Of a stretch of 64,000 nucleotides of DNA, positions 2,699 to 35,654 are shown in pieces. Position 1 is the first letter of the stretch. The number at the start of each line of letters is the position of its first letter. Under the pieces are notes generated by a model. It was not told where the DNA came from. It saw nothing but the letters and a program-made list of their open reading frames with translations, and ran no database searches. Position numbers and translations under genes: made by a program. The DNA comes from Anaerovoracaceae bacterium (GTDB lineage Bacteria > Bacillota > Clostridia > Peptostreptococcales > Anaerovoracaceae): NCBI GenBank assembly GCA_052169645.1, contig JBQNCA010000004.1, positions 25,801-89,800 of the forward strand. Reading direction: 5' to 3'.

Positions 2699-3979
2699 TT
2701 ACCGATGATTAAGGCAATATGCTCTTATCTCTCCGATATAGTACAGCGACCCGAAGGCGCATATTACCTCGTCGCTGTATTTTTTTATGCAATAATCTAT
2801 TGCCGAGCTTATACTTTCGCAGGCTTCAGACTCGCATCCTTTCCTTCGGATTTTATCGGCAAGCTCCCCTGCAGAAAGTGCTCTCGGATTCGGAGGGGTA
2901 ACGGTAAGGAAACGGGAAGCCGAAGGGATTATCGGCTTGAGCATTGCATCAATATCTTTATCCGCCAATACTCCCATGATAAAAGTTATGCGTTGCTGCG
3001 GGAATAAATCCGAAAGGCTTGCAGCCAATGCCTCGGCACCGTCGACATTATGAGCTCCGTCGATTATAACAATCGGTGATTTGTAAACAACTTCCAATCG
3101 TCCGTTCCAACGGGCGGCTTTTAATCCCGATTTCAATGCATGCTCCGAAATCATCATACCGCCCGCTCTCAAAACACTAACTGCGGAGATTGCCGTCAAC
3201 ACATTCATTATCTGATGTTTGCCCAACAGCGAAATTCGATATTCCGAGCCGTCCGGCAATCTGAAGCTTTGACCTTTTATATCCGAAGCAATAATATCGA
3301 CATTCTTTGTAGATACCTCGATAAGTGGAGCCTTTCTTTCATCGCAATAAAATTTTATAATTTCATTGACTTCCTGTCTCTGCCCGGCTGCAACCACGGG
3401 GCAGCCTTCCTTTATAATGCCCGCCTTTTCACCTGCAATTTCCTCTATTGTATGTCCGAGAAAATCCGTATGATCCGTTCCTATACGGGTAATAACAGAA
3501 ACTTCACTGCGTTTTATAATATTTGTAGCATCAAGCCTTCCGCCCATGCCCACCTCAAGAATAACGATGTCACATCCTTTTTCAAAAAAATACATAAACG
3601 CAACTGCCGTAACCATTTCAAATATGGTAGGCGCAGTATGCCCCGATGAGAGCATTCCTTCAACTGCAAGCTTTACACGCTCGGTCAGCCTCGCAAGATC
3701 ACTGCGTGAAATTTCTTCGTCGCCTATTCGTATACGCTCAGTAAAACGTTCTATAAAAGGTGAGGTATACAATCCGGTTTTATAGCCGGCATGTCGTAAG
3801 ACACTTTCCGTCATCGCCGATACGGATCCTTTACCGTTCGTACCTGCTATGTGAACATATTTTAATTTATCCTGAGGATTTCCCAAAAGCCTCATCAGCT
3901 CCGTAACAGCATCAAGCCCGGGTCTGGTCAGATTGTATATAGGATTTTTCAGAAAATCCACAGCTTCATCATAGGTCAT
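2699..3979 (-). CDS. folC: folylpolyglutamate synthase / dihydrofolate synthase
   Basis: HIAGTNGKGS P-loop and Mur-ligase-type layout. True start is MTYDEAVDFL at 3979, overlapping the folT stop as TGATG. The track ORF extends upstream only for lack of an in-frame stop. Confidence 0.9.
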   Translation of the reverse strand: MTYDEAVDFLKNPIYNLTRPGLDAVTELMRLLGNPQDKLKYVHIAGTNGKGSVSAMTESVLRHAGYKTGLYTSPFIERFTERIRIGDEEISRSDLARLTERVKLAVEGMLSSGHTAPTIFEMVTAVAFMYFFEKGCDIVILEVGMGGRLDATNIIKRSEVSVITRIGTDHTDFLGHTIEEIAGEKAGIIKEGCPVVAAGQRQEVNEIIKFYCDERKAPLIEVSTKNVDIIASDIKGQSFRLPDGSEYRISLLGKHQIMNVLTAISAVSVLRAGGMMISEHALKSGLKAARWNGRLEVVYKSPIVIIDGAHNVDGAEALAASLSDLFPQQRITFIMGVLADKDIDAMLKPIIPSASRFLTVTPPNPRALSAGELADKIRRKGCESEACESISSAIDYCIKKYSDEVICAFGSLYYIGEIRAYCLNHR

Positions 3980-4539
3980 CAATTCTGTTCCTTTACTGTA
4001 AACGCAAGCCTCGCACTCCTGAGAGCTTTTAAAAGTACATACATCATTCCTGCCTGTATGGGCCAAAAAATCAGGCATTTCAACATTCGCACCGGCAGCA
4101 TAATATACACCGCCTTGTGATAAAGTATGGAAAGCCAAAGAGTATTCATCCCCAAATCCACTACGAGCACGCATATAAATGTAGCAATAACAACTCTTTT
4201 CAGAGTGAGCGGCTTTTTATACATTGCAATTCCTATTATGAGAGTCATCACTATTGCCGATATCGTAAATCCTGCAAAAAAAGGCCCTGTCGGCTTTGCA
4301 AAATAGTTGATTATATCCATAGCCGCTCCCATTAGAGGTCCTACAACCGGTCCGAAAAGAGCAGCTCCCATCTCTATCGGGACATTCGCAAAATCAATCT
4401 TTACAGATTCCGTAACCTGCACCGAAAAATATCCCAACACCATGGAAATTGCTCCAAGCATGGCACAAACCGTAAAGGTTTTTACATTTTTCAGTTCCTC
4501 GGCTGAATTCCTGAATATAGTCGTAATTTTTTCAATCAT
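3979..4539 (-). CDS. folT: ECF transporter S component, folate family (FolT-like)
   Basis: Polytopic membrane protein of about 186 aa, translationally coupled to folC and preceded by a THF riboswitch. ATG at 4539 lies 7 nt after AGGAGA. Confidence 0.75.
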   Translation of the reverse strand: MIEKITTIFRNSAEELKNVKTFTVCAMLGAISMVLGYFSVQVTESVKIDFANVPIEMGAALFGPVVGPLMGAAMDIINYFAKPTGPFFAGFTISAIVMTLIIGIAMYKKPLTLKRVVIATFICVLVVDLGMNTLWLSILYHKAVYIMLPVRMLKCLIFWPIQAGMMYVLLKALRSARLAFTVKEQN

Positions 4540-4590
4540 AATAAATTCTCCTGAAAATATACTGCTTGCAGCCGCAACATCGCAACATAA

Positions 4591-4618
4591 ATTAAGAAAC
4601 CGCACATAAAAAGTGCGG
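4591..4618 (-). terminator. intrinsic terminator-like hairpin (expression platform of the THF riboswitch)
   Basis: Minus strand reads CCGCAC-TTTTTAT-GTGCGG followed by TTTCTTAATTT. It lies between the aptamer and the folT RBS. Confidence 0.5.
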
Positions 4619-4711: not shown

Positions 4712-4822
4712 CAGTATTGCAGCGGGATGCGACCCATATACCGCAAGGCTTGCACCTTTTCGCCCGGATGACAACTCCCCGTCCACCCGATACTTAACGC
4801 ATATGAATCTACTCTTTAATGT
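4712..4822 (-). promoter_or_regulatory. THF (tetrahydrofolate) riboswitch aptamer, folT motif
   Basis: Minus strand reads AGAGTAG-ATTCATAT-GCGTTAAGT...GGTATATGGGTC-GCATCCCGCT. This matches the conserved AGAGUAG / GCGUUAAGU / GCAUCCGCU cores as I remember them from the published Eubacterium siraeum THF aptamer. P2 helix GATTCATAT/ATATGGGTC is intact. Position upstream of folT is as expected. Confidence 0.85.
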
Positions 4823-30994: not shown

Positions 30995-31095
30995 AGTCGA
31001 GGGACTTCTTTCTGCAAAATAAGCTCGCGCTTTATCTCATCAGGTTCGTACATCGAGTCGGGGACTTCTTTTCGCAAAATATTGTCGACCTTTAT
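30995..31095 (+). repeat. two ~40-bp imperfect direct repeats, 61-bp period
   Basis: AGTCGAGGGACTTCTTTCTGCAAAATAAGCTCGCGCTTTAT (30995-31035) versus AGTCGGGGACTTCTTTTCGCAAAATATTGTCGACCTTTAT (31056-31095). They lie in a 528-bp divergent intergenic region. Confidence 0.7.
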
Positions 31096-31294
31096 AATAT
31101 AAACCTGTTTCACAAAGTTTCAGCTGCATTTAAAAAATTTCATATCTTATGAATAACTGATTTATATTCCATTATCATGATAATGCTTGTAAAATATATA
31201 GTATGTTTTATGATTTTTATTTTGTTACAGCTGAGAATACAATTTTCACTTCCCAATAATAATTTACAAAAAATATTTACAGGAGGTTTCCTTA

Positions 31295-31825
31295 ATGCAT
31301 TATTTTTTAACCGGTGAAAGGCAGGTAGGTAAAAGCACTCTCATCAATAAGCTCATATCTGAAACCGGAGCATCCGTCGGAGGTTTTCGCACTTCCTTCG
31401 ATAAAAACCGTTTTACATCCGCACACAGAAATCTGTATATGTATGATGCCGCCAAATCATTTATTCCCGATGATGAGCATATAATTTGCCGGATGATTCC
31501 CGGTGAGATACTTCCCCGCACGGAAAGATTCGACACACTGGGAAGCACCTATATAAACCGTGCCCTTAAAAACAGCTGTGAACTTCTCATAATGGATGAA
31601 TGCGGCAGACTGGAAAATAAAGCTGAGATTTTCAAAGCTTCCGTGATTAAGGCTCTGGATAAAGCGCCTTTGGTTTTGGGTGTAATCCAAATCGAACTGC
31701 CAAAGTGGACTGAAGCAATCTTCAATCGTCCCGATGTGGAGCTTGTGCACATAAGCATTGAAAACAGAGATTACGAAACAAAACGCCTTATTGATGCGGT
31801 AAGAAAAGAGCTTATCGTGCAATAA
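31295..31825 (+). CDS. P-loop NTPase (THEP1/NTPase_1-like)
   Basis: Walker A GERQVGKST and Walker B LLIMDECG. About 176 aa, a single domain. RBS AGGAGG. Confidence 0.6.
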   Translation: MHYFLTGERQVGKSTLINKLISETGASVGGFRTSFDKNRFTSAHRNLYMYDAAKSFIPDDEHIICRMIPGEILPRTERFDTLGSTYINRALKNSCELLIMDECGRLENKAEIFKASVIKALDKAPLVLGVIQIELPKWTEAIFNRPDVELVHISIENRDYETKRLIDAVRKELIVQ

Positions 31826-31990
31826 ATTTTAATTTTCAAGTCAACTCTCATACATAAACAACAACTTGAAAAAGCAAGTTTACAAGCCTTATAAATAAAA
31901 AACTATTTGTGTTGCCGCATTACAGATTGGCTAAAAAATATACTTCATCGGAATTCCAATAAAAGCATTTGAATATATCAGGAGGACATA

Positions 31991-32542
31991 ATGAAAAAAA
32001 TATCCGTCATACTCATAGCTCTGCTGCTTATAACAGGCATCGCAGGAGCAATAGCATACTATCTGTTTTCAGACAATTTCAACCTCATGAGCCATGAAAT
32101 CTTGAGTGAAAATGAAAAATATTCTATGAAAGTTCCTATCTTATGGAAAGCCTGCCCTCCTACATCGGATCAGGGGGTATTGGCAGCACAAAGCAAAGAC
32201 GGTTCAACCTTTGTAAACGTATCCATAGATTCCAAATATCTGCAAAACGGTGAAACTGTAGAAGAATATGTATATTCATATATAAATCGCATAGCCGAGA
32301 ACAGCGATAATCCTCTTATACAGGTATTGACGGTCGCACCTAAACAAGTTCAGTTAGGCGATAAAACAGGTTATTACTTTGAACTGGATACTTCTGCGGG
32401 AAATGTAATGCTTCACACTTGGGACTTTGTCTATACTTCATCAAACGGTTACATTCATATAGATGTAGCTGCCAAGGGTGACAATCAGGAAAAAATGAAG
32501 GATATATCCAAAGGAATAATGGAGTCTTTTAAAATAAATTAA
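31991..32542 (+). CDS. hypothetical membrane-anchored protein (N-terminal TM helix plus ~150-aa extracytoplasmic domain)
   Basis: RBS AGGAGG. MKKISVILIALLLITGIAGAIAYYLF anchor. Ends 12 nt before the next gene. Confidence 0.6.
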   Translation: MKKISVILIALLLITGIAGAIAYYLFSDNFNLMSHEILSENEKYSMKVPILWKACPPTSDQGVLAAQSKDGSTFVNVSIDSKYLQNGETVEEYVYSYINRIAENSDNPLIQVLTVAPKQVQLGDKTGYYFELDTSAGNVMLHTWDFVYTSSNGYIHIDVAAKGDNQEKMKDISKGIMESFKIN

Positions 32543-32554
32543 GCAGGTATCAAA

Positions 32555-35128
32555 ATGAAAAAGATCGTTATAGGAATATTGGCTCATGTAGACTCGGGAA
32601 AAACGACTCTTTCCGAGTCTCTGCTCTATCATGCCGGAATTATCAGAAAGCTCGGTCGTGTCGACCACGGCGATTCGGTGCTGGATAACGAAATTACGGA
32701 GCGCAAACGAGGCATTACTATATTTTCAAAGCAGGCAATTATACAACACAACAATGTTTACATGACATTGCTGGACACTCCCGGTCATGCCGACTTCGGC
32801 GCTGAAGCCGAGCGCAGCTTAGATGTTTTGGATGCTGCCATACTTGTAATCAGCGCTTCCGAGGGAATACAGAGTCATACCGTGACACTTTGGCGTCTTT
32901 TAGAGCATCATAATGTCCCTGTATTTGTATTCATCAATAAAACGGATCTCATACACAAAGCTCATGATGAGCTTATAAACGAATTTTCCGAGAACTTCGG
33001 CGACGGCTTTGCGGATTTTACCGCAGCAGATAATGACAATATTGCCATATGCGATGAGGCTCTTCTGAACGACTATGTAAAGACTGGAAAGCTGAGCCTT
33101 GAGTTGATACAGGATGCTGTTATGCATCGCAGACTCTTTCCGTGCTTTTCCGGCTCGGCTTTGAAGCTGGACGGTACCGCCGAATTTCTCGACGAGCTTT
33201 TAAAATATGCGTTAAGCAAAGATGCCCGCTCCTCATTCGGAGCAAAGGTATACCGCATTTCACGAGATTCTCAGGGTCAACGTCTCACTCATATGAAGAT
33301 TACCGGCGGTTCTCTCGCAGTTAAAAATACAGTAGGCAACGAAAAGATAAACGAAATTCGTTTTTACACGGGCGGAAAATATACTACGGCGGATATTGCG
33401 GAAGCCGGAACCGTATGTGCAGTAACCGGACTTGAACTCAGCTATCCGGGTATGGGAATAGGATGCGAGCGGGATATGAGCGAAGCTTTGCTTGAGCCTG
33501 TAATGACATATACCGTTATAATTGAAGATTCAACACTTCCTCATGTCGTTCTTGAGAAGCTTAAACTGCTCGAAGAAGAGCTGCCCGAGCTTAATGTTGT
33601 CCGTATAGAGGCTTTGCAGGAAATTCATATTCAGACTATGGGTGCGGTTCAGCTTGAAGTCATAGAAGCTTTGATGTCGGAAAGATTCGGAATAAGGATA
33701 AGCTTCGGACAGGGAAACATACTTTACAAGGAGACCATTGCCGCCTCAGTTGAAGGCGTCGGACATTTTGAGCCGCTTCGCCACTACGCCGAGGTGCATC
33801 TTTTAATGGAGCCGGGTGAAAGAGGCAGCGGCATATCTATCAGTGCCGATTGCAGTACCGACTATGGAGATATATCCCGTCAAAGGGTGATATTGAGCCA
33901 TATTGCAGAAAAGGTCCACTCCGGAATATTGACAGGTTCGCCGCTCACCGATACGAAAATAACTCTCATTGCATGGCGTGCAAGCAATGTCCATACCGAG
34001 GGCGGCGATTTCAGACAGGCGACCCTCCGAGCGGTGCGGCAGGGTCTTTCGGAAGCCGGCTGTATTCTCCTTGAGCCTTGGTACAGCTTCACCGCAACTC
34101 TGCCGTCCGAAAGCATAGGTCGCCTTGTAAACGATATTCAACAGTTGGGCGGGAGCACAGATGCTCCTGAAATATCCGGTGCCCAAGCTATAGTCAGGGG
34201 GCGTGCTCCGTTAAACGGTATGCAGGACTATTCCACGACCCTCAAGTCATATACGAAGGGCAGCGGCAATATAGTAATTGTAAATGACGGTTACGACATA
34301 TGTCATAATGCTGACGAAGTTATTGCCGCTTTTAATTACGATCCTGAGCGTGATACTGAAAATCCGTCCTCATCCATATTCTGTGAACACGGTAGCGGAG
34401 TTACAGTCCCGTGGCAGGAGGTGAAATCACGCATGCATATCGAAAGTGCGCGGCGGCAGGCTTCAAATGCTCCGGCGGGCGATGGCTGTGCGGGTGCAGG
34501 CTTTGATGCGGGAGCCGGAGCTGCAAAAAATACCCTACACGATATAAGCTCCGAAGAAGAGGATAAGCAGCTGCAGGCAATATTTGAAAAAACCTTCGGG
34601 CCCTCCAAAAAAGCCGGATTGCATAAAGCTCCAAAATATTTGATGCCGAATAACTCTGAGAATACGCATTCCGCCAAGCCTTACAGAGGCAGAGAAAATC
34701 CTTATAAAGAAGATTATATTATCGTCGACGGCTACAACCTCATATATGCATGGAAGGAATTAAAAGAACTTTCCGAGCAGGATTTCGGAGCGGCACGAGA
34801 AAAGCTTATCGGAATACTTGCAAATTACAGAGCTTTTATAGGCTGTCATATGCTGATAGTATTTGACGCATATAAAGTAAAAAACGGCATGGGCAGTATA
34901 GAAAAAGTTCACGGTATAGATGTGGTTTATACCCGTGAAGCTCAAACCGCCGATGCCTATATAGAAAAAGTAAGCTATGAAATAAGCAAAGCTTATCGTG
35001 TCAGAGTCGTAACCTCCGACAGAATGGAACAGCTCATCATACTCGGAAACGGTGCTCTCAGAGTTTCCTCACAAGCTTTCATAGAAGAAATCAGTTCCGT
35101 TGAAAACGAGATCAGGGATTTTTTGTAG
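32555..35128 (+). CDS. translational GTPase (TetM/TetO/EF-G-like, five-domain) fused to a C-terminal YacP/Rae1-type NYN endoribonuclease domain
   Basis: G1 AHVDSGKT, G2 RGITI, G3 DTPGH, G4 NKTD. LFPCFSGSALK, ILYKETI and LLEPWYSFTATLP resemble TetM domains as I recall that sequence. About 120 aa of low-complexity linker. Residues 721-857 (nt 34715-35125) have IIVDGYNLIYAW, LIVFDA, QTADAYIEK and VVTSDRMEQLIILGNGALRVS, resembling B. subtilis YacP as I recall it. Confidence 0.85.
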   Translation: MKKIVIGILAHVDSGKTTLSESLLYHAGIIRKLGRVDHGDSVLDNEITERKRGITIFSKQAIIQHNNVYMTLLDTPGHADFGAEAERSLDVLDAAILVISASEGIQSHTVTLWRLLEHHNVPVFVFINKTDLIHKAHDELINEFSENFGDGFADFTAADNDNIAICDEALLNDYVKTGKLSLELIQDAVMHRRLFPCFSGSALKLDGTAEFLDELLKYALSKDARSSFGAKVYRISRDSQGQRLTHMKITGGSLAVKNTVGNEKINEIRFYTGGKYTTADIAEAGTVCAVTGLELSYPGMGIGCERDMSEALLEPVMTYTVIIEDSTLPHVVLEKLKLLEEELPELNVVRIEALQEIHIQTMGAVQLEVIEALMSERFGIRISFGQGNILYKETIAASVEGVGHFEPLRHYAEVHLLMEPGERGSGISISADCSTDYGDISRQRVILSHIAEKVHSGILTGSPLTDTKITLIAWRASNVHTEGGDFRQATLRAVRQGLSEAGCILLEPWYSFTATLPSESIGRLVNDIQQLGGSTDAPEISGAQAIVRGRAPLNGMQDYSTTLKSYTKGSGNIVIVNDGYDICHNADEVIAAFNYDPERDTENPSSSIFCEHGSGVTVPWQEVKSRMHIESARRQASNAPAGDGCAGAGFDAGAGAAKNTLHDISSEEEDKQLQAIFEKTFGPSKKAGLHKAPKYLMPNNSENTHSAKPYRGRENPYKEDYIIVDGYNLIYAWKELKELSEQDFGAAREKLIGILANYRAFIGCHMLIVFDAYKVKNGMGSIEKVHGIDVVYTREAQTADAYIEKVSYEISKAYRVRVVTSDRMEQLIILGNGALRVSSQAFIEEISSVENEIRDFL

Positions 35129-35654
35129 CCAAAATTTGTGCTTCCTCATCCGTAAAATATTGCCCATGATCATCAAAATATCCGCCATAGTACTCATTTA
35201 TATAAATATACTCAAATCTGTCTACGGCTCCGTCATGATTTATATCACAGCTGCTGTCATATCCATACTCGCCCGGAAACAGTGGAAACATTAAATCGGC
35301 GCTTGAAATACTTTTCCGGCTTTGCTTTGATGTTTCCGATTTATATGCAGTACTCTGTCCCTTGTCGGAATCGACAGATACCTCTTTTCCTCGTACACCG
35401 GTCGAAGCTTTAACAGCTTTCTCTTCGTTAATTTTATTATCATCGACCTGTTCTTCATCAATTTTATTATAATCGACTTTATTTTCTTCAATCCGCTCTT
35501 CATTAATTTTATTGTCTTCACAGGTCGATTTCGAACTGTCCTTCGGATTACCGCCTTTGGAATAAACATTCATCATAATAACAGCAATCACAACGCCGAT
35601 TACAATCCCGATTATCACAGCTGCTGCAATAGACAGCTTCATTTTTTTAGACAT
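35112..35654 (-). CDS. hypothetical membrane-anchored protein with acidic 10-aa tandem repeats and a canonical EF-hand Ca-binding loop
   Basis: RBS GGGGGAG. TM LSIAAAVIIGIVIGVVIAVIMM. Repeats of the form (V/I)D(D/Y)NKI(N/D)EE. EF-hand loop DINHDGAVDRFE (nt 35211-35246). The 3' end overlaps the convergent GTPase-NYN gene by 17 nt. Confidence 0.6.
   Translation of the reverse strand: MSKKMKLSIAAAVIIGIVIGVVIAVIMMNVYSKGGNPKDSSKSTCEDNKINEERIEENKVDYNKIDEEQVDDNKINEEKAVKASTGVRGKEVSVDSDKGQSTAYKSETSKQSRKSISSADLMFPLFPGEYGYDSSCDINHDGAVDRFEYIYINEYYGGYFDDHGQYFTDEEAQILATKNP
35418..35519 (-). repeat. in-frame ~30-nt tandem repeats
   Basis: The plus strand shows recurring AATTTTATTnTnATCGAC units, encoding the NKI(N/D)EE repeats. 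Confidence 0.6.

Follow-up and report, generated by a model that had tools for sequence, protein, structure and literature searches.

A clostridial fusion of a TetM/EF-G-like GTPase with a Rae1/YacP-type NYN domain, a candidate ribosome-docking RNA endonuclease

Rae1 (YacP) is a ribosome-dependent mRNA endonuclease feeding trans-translation, as shown experimentally (PMC12407103, PMC13622287). It generates substrates for transfer-messenger RNA (tmRNA) on collided ribosomes, in what was called the 'CART' pathway (PMC13622287). According to the same preprint, the transient nature of the binding explains why there is no ribosome-bound structure of Rae1. Tet proteins with a YacP-like NYN domain were reported in ten Clostridiales species by Atkinson 2015 (PMC4342817), who speculated on a resistance mechanism via RNase activity, and TetM-NYN_YacP fusions were noticed in some Clostridia by Matelska 2017 (PMC5499597), where their role was left open. 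The present analysis deals with one such fusion gene, of the same architecture and from the same class (Clostridia), which is located at positions 32555 to 35128 of a stretch of 64,000 nucleotides (hereafter the window) from the genome of an Anaerovoracaceae bacterium (assembly GCA_052169645.1, contig JBQNCA010000004.1, positions 25,801 to 89,800). An earlier note on this DNA, made from the sequence alone, had proposed the fusion and knew of no characterised member. The latter holds as far as function is concerned, as full-text literature searches returned no functional study of the fusion, but the architecture itself had already been described in the two surveys. The gene is a member of a large, catalogued and experimentally unstudied family, and not a new discovery. 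To the two surveys, the present analysis adds the definition of a conserved extension of domain V, of a linker motif and of family-specific loops in domain IV.

The chances are put at about even that this gene would encode a self-contained, ribosome-docking RNA endonuclease, a GTP-gated factor with a tethered Rae1 domain that would cleave mRNA where ribosomes stall or collide and so supply tmRNA rescue. Translation of the window confirmed the single uninterrupted frame of 857 codons that had been claimed: the open reading frame (ORF) starts with ATG, contains no internal stop codon or frameshift, and has full-length relatives. Every sequence motif quoted in the earlier note was found in the translation, and with the domain matches given below the fusion stands well above chance level. 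The following features were defined in the ORF, with AlphaFold2 (AF2) models and their predicted local distance difference test (pLDDT) scores where given:

32555..35128, plus strand: complete ORF of the GTPase-NYN fusion, 857 codons, stop codon at 35126-35128; full-length proteins 99% and 81% identical in independent assemblies
32564..33211, plus strand: G domain, residues 4-219 (Pfam GTP_EFTU, E 2.8e-48)
33239..33463, plus strand: domain II beta-barrel, residues ~229-303 (AF2 strands at 229-303; PF22042 EF-G_D2 in relatives)
33494..33709, plus strand: domain III, residues 314-385 (Pfam EFG_III, sub-threshold with 19.8 bits against 27)
33716..34057, plus strand: domain IV, residues 388-501 (Pfam EFG_IV, 1.8e-13)
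34067..34309, plus strand: domain V, residues 505-585 (Pfam EFG_C, E 2.5e-18)
34310..34438, plus strand: domain V extension, residues 586-628 (alignments and pLDDT of the full-length model)
34439..34714, plus strand: flexible linker, residues 629-720, ~92 aa (pLDDT below 50 at 635-670 and 681-715)
34553..34600, plus strand: amphipathic linker helix, residues 667-682, DKELxxIFERTYG (alignments; AF2 helix at 666-681)
34715..35125, plus strand: Rae1/YacP-type NYN endonuclease domain, residues 721-857 (Pfam; match to 5MQ8/5MQ9, template modelling (TM) score 0.72)

The set of Pfam families expected on this protein was obtained in part. GTP_EFTU, EFG_IV, EFG_C and NYN_YacP were all found on one chain, while EFG_III stayed below threshold and GTP_EFTU_D2, like any other model of domain II, gave no match on the window protein. 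In relatives, EFG_III was detected above threshold. With Foldseek, the full-length AF2 model matched ribosome-bound EF-G and TetM structures (E 1e-49 to 1e-43, with EF-G aligned over ~680 columns). The G domain contains the motifs G1 AHVDSGKT, G2 RGITI, G3 DTPGH (including His78), G4 NKTD and G5 GSALK, together with a short Tet-like G' insert.

The C-terminal 137 residues had been assigned to the YacP-type NYN domains with their acidic residues, and this assignment was borne out. NYN_YacP (PF05991) was matched by residues 722-854 with 157.4 bits against a cut-off of 24.6 (E 4.3e-46), covering positions 1-135 of the 166 positions of the model. The same part aligned to residues 2-135 of YacP/Rae1 of B. 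subtilis (PDB 5MQ8/5MQ9; E 4e-27). When the C-terminal 286 residues were modelled, 5MQ9 and 5MQ8 were the best Foldseek matches in the PDB (TM 0.66-0.72, root mean square deviation (rmsd) of 2.4-3.5 A), and the superposition with 5MQ9 gave the TM of 0.72 at an rmsd of 2.4 A. All four aspartates of the Rae1 active site are present: D725, D771, D800 and D822 correspond to D7, D53, D81 and D104 of Rae1, in a numbering counted from the alignments.

Conservation was followed in two alignments, one (A1) of 21 close relatives and a second one of 150 cluster representatives (clusters at 50% identity), to which the counts out of 150 refer. The NYN aspartates are kept in 146-148 of the 150 representatives, and the motifs G1 to G5 with the catalytic His78 of DTPGH in 149-150. 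Judged from these alignments, both catalytic centres are intact and under strict purifying selection on one chain. With the stand-alone YacP proteins of B. subtilis and C. difficile, the NYN domain shares 40-47% identity, as would be expected between orthologues.

The window protein thus shares with Rae1 of B. subtilis the NYN fold, ~40% identity and the four acidic active-site residues, and ribosome association is presumed for the fusion as well. In contrast to Rae1, a stand-alone protein of 170 aa with a basic C-terminal tail and helix, the NYN domain forms here the C-terminus of a GTPase of 857 aa and is devoid of the tail. The chain of the window protein stops with the NYN core, and no counterpart of the basic tail and helix (~136-170 in Rae1) was detected in it. 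The Rae1-type tail is present in YacP of C. difficile and in only ~10% of the fusions. Its loss in most members fits with a GTPase module that would have taken over ribosome targeting. In the census of Rae1 given in PMC13622287, hmmsearch was used without a length filter for Rae1, and the fusions were therefore presumably counted as Rae1.

Rae1 is encoded in the rlmB-yacP-sigH operon and the stand-alone yacP of C. difficile sits in the canonical context at the rlmB-sigH locus, whereas the fusion gene lies outside that operon: the context cysS-mrnC-rlmB-yacP-sigH was found at none of 75 fusion loci (one per species), nor in the window. This bears on an alternative in which the nuclease would target rRNA or tRNA, the factor docking on the 70S ribosome or the 50S subunit and maturing or cutting rRNA in biogenesis, quality control or regulated inactivation. 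A nuclease tethered at the factor site would be within reach of elements of the 16S and 23S rRNA, and other translational GTPases, BipA and LepA, act in subunit assembly. Moreover, the operon that yacP shares with mrnC and rlmB had at first led to the prediction that YacP processes rRNA or tRNA (Matelska 2017). All experimental work on Rae1, however, shows translation-dependent cleavage of mRNA, the NYN domain of the fusions is close to the YacPs and has the same active site, and linkage to rRNA-processing genes was seen at 0 of the 75 loci. An rRNA or tRNA target is considered unlikely.

The GTPase module was compared with TetM-type proteins and EF-G. With TetM and TetO (PDB 3J9Y, 4V6V), it shares the five-domain layout and the short G' insert, and TetM is the closest family by profile hidden Markov model (HMM) score. 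Among NCBIfam models, tet_protect (NF012153) scored best and aligned end to end, but with 365.8 bits it remained below its cut-off of 775. Also below their cut-offs were tet_protect_M_W (NF033148; 255.3 bits against 1100) and the EF-G model TIGR00484 (237.4 bits against 659.4), the latter aligning in two stretches. The best sequence match in the PDB was TetM, with 215 bits against 198 for EF-G, and a single collinear alignment was obtained between residues 1-582 of the window protein and residues 1-612 of TetM. With EF-G and EF-G2, the module has in common the fold, down to the E-value of 1e-49 with ribosome-bound EF-G, and intact GTPase motifs. Its G' subdomain is smaller than that of EF-G, and the loops of its domain IV are unlike those by which EF-G contacts the codon-anticodon duplex.

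Loop III at the tip of domain IV is the element of TetM that acts on the drug: Pro509 at the tip of this loop was seen in cryo-electron microscopy work to dislodge tetracycline. In the alignment, the YSPVS segment of TetM (506-510) is replaced by ASNVHTEGG in the window protein and by the consensus AHxKHTEGG in the family, without a proline. Two tip loops were delimited, GHFEPLRHYAEV (403-414) and ..HTEGGDFRQA (480-489), the family consensus of the second one being (A)HxKHTEGGDFRQA. They are near-invariant in the 150 representatives and, as judged from the alignments, both are specific to the fusion family. The fusion further differs from TetM and TetO in lacking the C-terminal helix, the place of which is taken by a different conserved module (the extension described below), in its additional 270 aa (extension, linker and NYN domain) and in a chromosomal instead of a mobile gene. 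The assignment to a TetM/EF-G-type GTPase in the earlier note can therefore be kept for the five-domain layout and all the GTPase motifs, and has to be corrected for the tet_protect cut-off, which is not reached, and for the YSPVS loop. Following these comparisons, the fusion GTPase is judged not to be a bona fide TetM-type protection protein.

Within the near-invariant loop of domain IV, the window protein itself was seen to depart from the family. W474, S477 and V479 (nt 33974-33991) stand at positions where the family has G, H and K in 142, 129 and 138 of the 150 representatives, respectively. The lineage of the window is consequently a divergent member at the presumed contact with the A site.

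A tetracycline ribosomal protection protein (TetM/O/W type) that confers resistance and carries an accessory RNase domain, an idea raised in Atkinson 2015, is regarded as very unlikely. TetM as best PDB match, tet_protect as best and end-to-end NCBIfam model and the Tet-family names of some orthologues in RefSeq would speak for it. The scores, however, lie far below the curated cut-offs, YSPVS including the Pro509 tip as well as the C-terminal helix of TetM are replaced, and the genes are chromosomal and stand in unrelated housekeeping contexts in 75 species, with no association to mobile elements. The gene is also preceded by no tet(M)-style leader and starts 12 nt from the upstream gene.

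The RefSeq name of the orthologue of Agathobacter rectalis is 'TetM/TetW/TetO/TetS family tetracycline resistance ribosomal protection protein', and several entries from metagenome-assembled genomes carry the same Tet-family label. Many members are labelled TetM/TetW/TetO/TetS by RefSeq and other pipelines. Since the labelled members appear to fail the curated cut-off, the window protein at least by a wide margin, and to be devoid of the key loop, the number of tetracycline resistance genes in commensals may be overestimated by resistome surveys.

Between domain V and the NYN domain, a low-complexity linker of ~120 aa had been proposed. Its first part, residues 586-628, turned out to be conserved and structured, consisting of a helix, a beta-hairpin and a second helix with the motif CHN..x25..S[VI]FC.HG.G..V.W, which is invariant in alignment A1. 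The pLDDT of this region was 75-85 in the full-length model and 30-48 when it was modelled without domain V. Since it is confidently modelled only alongside domain V, it was assigned as an extension of this domain and not as low-complexity linker. What stands of the earlier claim is a shorter linker of ~92 aa (629-720), which contains the conserved helix motif.

An arrangement of the type Cys-His...Cys-x-His was noticed in the region of the extension (C583, H584, C610 and H612; nt 34301-34390), and it is invariant in the 21 closest relatives. These residues could form a putative structural metal site. C583 was found in 132 and C610 in 128 of the 150 representatives; as the conservation of the four Cys/His residues reaches only 58-88% in that set, the idea of a zinc site is left as a mere remark.

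Across the family, the median linker length is 86 aa (92 aa in the window protein), and both length and charge pattern are conserved. Disorder is predicted for the linker, in which the conserved amphipathic helix divides an acidic first half from a basic second half (27% Lys/Arg). A Gly/Ala-rich insert in the linker is confined to the lineage of the window (the window protein, P0001 and P0002). It was also considered whether the linker helix is a permuted copy of the C-terminal helix of Rae1, which was rejected because both helices are present in some fusions.

To assess the distribution of the fusion, 1.84 billion cluster representatives were searched exhaustively with HMMER, and GTDB was scanned with one genome for each species. 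The fusion is present in at least 150 clusters (50% identity); among the matches listed, almost all are full-length (800-1150 aa), and the 150th one still has an E-value of 1e-176. At least 597 species genomes carry it, to be compared with the ~ten species and the 'some Clostridia' of the two surveys. In the best 80 of these species matches, 80 of 80 cover the junction and the NYN domain, with ORFs of 800-990 aa, apart from those truncated at the end of a contig. Carriers include Oscillospiraceae, Ruminococcus, Faecalibacterium (with F. prausnitzii), Gemmiger and Acutalibacteraceae, within the Lachnospiraceae Agathobacter, Lachnospira, Anaerobutyricum and Herbinix, and further Anaerovoracaceae and Monoglobus. 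In the phyletic survey that had been suggested in the earlier note, the fusion proved to be widespread in gut Clostridia.

A single ORF could also arise from a frameshift or an assembly error joining two adjacent genes, which the earlier note had named as a possible objection. No sign of it was seen. The 99% and 81% identical full-length proteins stem from independent assemblies, and the 81% relative is syntenic with the window on a 146-kb contig. The architecture is found in thousands of relatives. The same junction, with the conserved extension and the linker motif, recurs in at least 150 clusters and in all 80 inspected species genomes, so that the probability of an artefact is practically negligible. 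The fusion is neither an artefact nor rare. Two unusual proteins of the same GTPase lineage were observed besides. In P0268 (873 aa), a class IV aminotransferase domain replaces the linker and the NYN domain, and this protein may be a chimera of gene calling or assembly. P0145 (1156 aa) shows an insertion of ~300 aa inside the G domain.

No conserved neighbour was found, as no gene family occurs in more than 6 of the 75 species loci. In Flavonifractor, the fusion gene follows rplQ and lies near bipA, and in A. rectalis and Monoglobus it stands among unrelated housekeeping genes. A large chromosomal family with no conserved partner gene is what would be expected for an autonomous factor of housekeeping type. 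A search with tblastn revealed no second gene for an NYN protein or a translational GTPase in the window, and no second NYN gene was present in the flanks of 84 related loci, a result that concerns the flanks only and says nothing on the whole genomes. In the plasmid set, the only full-length matches lie on 'plasmid' records with housekeeping genes, among them L085 6120-8921 (Agathobacter rectalis NZ_CP143948.1) and L086 6240-8828 (Monoglobus pectinilyticus NZ_OY725736.1). These records of 252 kb and 518 kb carry map and secA and are therefore read as pieces of chromosomes. Matches in the phage set, MT835563.1 and MT835514.1, are full-length over the junction and the NYN domain and belong to unannotated contigs ('Bacteriophage sp.') of human faecal viromes; they probably stem from bacterial DNA in the virome preparations rather than from phages. 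The fusion is regarded as an autonomous chromosomal gene, the distribution of which is most simply explained by vertical inheritance.

The same data bear on the possibility of a conditional toxin or defence effector, in which the GTPase would serve as sensor and translation would be halted under stress or phage infection. RelE and other mRNA nucleases that depend on the ribosome are toxins, a cleavage of ribosome-stalling phage mRNAs has been speculated upon in the Rae1 literature, and the gene of A. rectalis adjoins a BrnT/CopG toxin-antitoxin pair. Against this, the defence models of PADLOC gave no match, and neither a defence island or mobile context nor an immunity or antitoxin partner was apparent at the 75 loci. 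In addition, whole orders carry the fusion as a single copy, at a divergence of 40-50%, which indicates vertical inheritance rather than the patchy pattern of defence genes, and the 'phage' matches come down to the unannotated virome contigs. A role as toxin or defence effector appears quite unlikely.

Targeting of the nuclease to ribosomes is the most plausible function of the GTPase module. In the proposed mechanism of mRNA cleavage on stalled or collided ribosomes, the N-terminal module in its GTP-bound form would dock at the factor site of the ribosome, and the family-specific tip of domain IV would enter a vacant or aberrant A site. Stalled ribosomes would thereby be selected over those served by EF-Tu. 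The earlier note had started from Rae1 cutting in the A site, a premise that was superseded by later work on Rae1. Because domain IV would fill the A site, the NYN domain would act outside the decoding centre. According to a geometric estimate, the tether of ~90 aa leaving from domain V could extend to the regions of mRNA entry or exit, or to an adjacent ribosome in a collision. If the NYN domain behaves as Rae1 does, it would then cut the mRNA at the trailing edge of the stalled ribosome or between two collided ones. The cleavage would leave a truncated mRNA, with upstream ribosomes left for rescue by tmRNA/SmpB, and GTP hydrolysis would release the factor. The GTPase module would in this way replace the weak and transient ribosome binding of free Rae1. 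Two observations weigh against this proposal: AF2 does not position the NYN domain with confidence against the GTPase (predicted TM score of 0.44), and the tip of domain IV differs from that of both EF-G and TetM.

SmrB of E. coli and Cue2 of yeast are functional analogues only. They resemble the proposed role of the fusion as nucleases recruited to stalled or collided ribosomes, where their cleavage of mRNA upstream of the stalled position delivers substrates to rescue pathways, but their SMR nuclease fold is unrelated, and they are recruited via the disome interface or ubiquitin and not by a translational GTPase module. A further-reaching and rather doubtful interpretation is that the fusion might represent a mechanistically new route of ribosome rescue or no-go decay in bacteria, in which the GTPase would sense the stall via the A site and GTP would license the tethered Rae1 nuclease. 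It might then replace free Rae1 in Oscillospirales and Lachnospirales, with a different recognition state or cut site.

Many Clostridia that rank among the most abundant in the human and animal gut carry the fusion, including Faecalibacterium, Agathobacter rectalis, Ruminococcus, Gemmiger and Oscillibacter. Rae1 was linked to the rescue of collided ribosomes only in 2025-2026, which makes the family timely. As Rae1 is here covalently coupled to a GTPase of the factor site, the protein could be trapped with guanosine 5'-(beta,gamma-imido)triphosphate (GDPNP) for cryo-electron microscopy, giving a handle on the recognition of ribosomes by Rae1.

Upstream of the fusion gene, two genes on the same strand occupy positions 31295-32542 (plus strand). 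They code for an NTPase_1 (THEP1-like) protein and, next, for a membrane-anchored PsbP-like lipoprotein, whose gene ends 12 nt ahead of the ATG of the fusion. A good sigma-70-like site was located at 31071-31098; otherwise the scan of the window for promoters and terminators gave nothing informative, including no leader of the tet(M) type. The three genes may form a lineage-specific operon, the NTPase_1/PsbP-like pair being shared with the 81% relative only and with no other species among the 75 loci.

Downstream of the fusion gene follow a convergent gene for a secreted nuclease, thrC and a gene for a Na+/H+ exchanger. A convergent ORF of 180 aa (35112-35654, minus strand), which had no Pfam match, shares 17 nt with the 3' end of the fusion gene. 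An N-terminal membrane helix is followed in it by degenerate K(I/V)(N/D)EE repeats. Its start and extent are uncertain, since the 81% relative has a shorter and non-overlapping gene of 126 aa at this place. At a distance from the fusion gene, a tetrahydrofolate (THF) riboswitch was detected at 4718-4818 (minus strand; 75 bits, with the gathering score at 36), upstream of an ORF of 208 aa (3979-4605, minus strand). In the syntenic relative L001, the counterpart of this ORF is the S-component of an energy-coupling factor (ECF) transporter, followed by a folC-like Mur-ligase gene. Genes for formate-THF ligase and FolD are located nearby.

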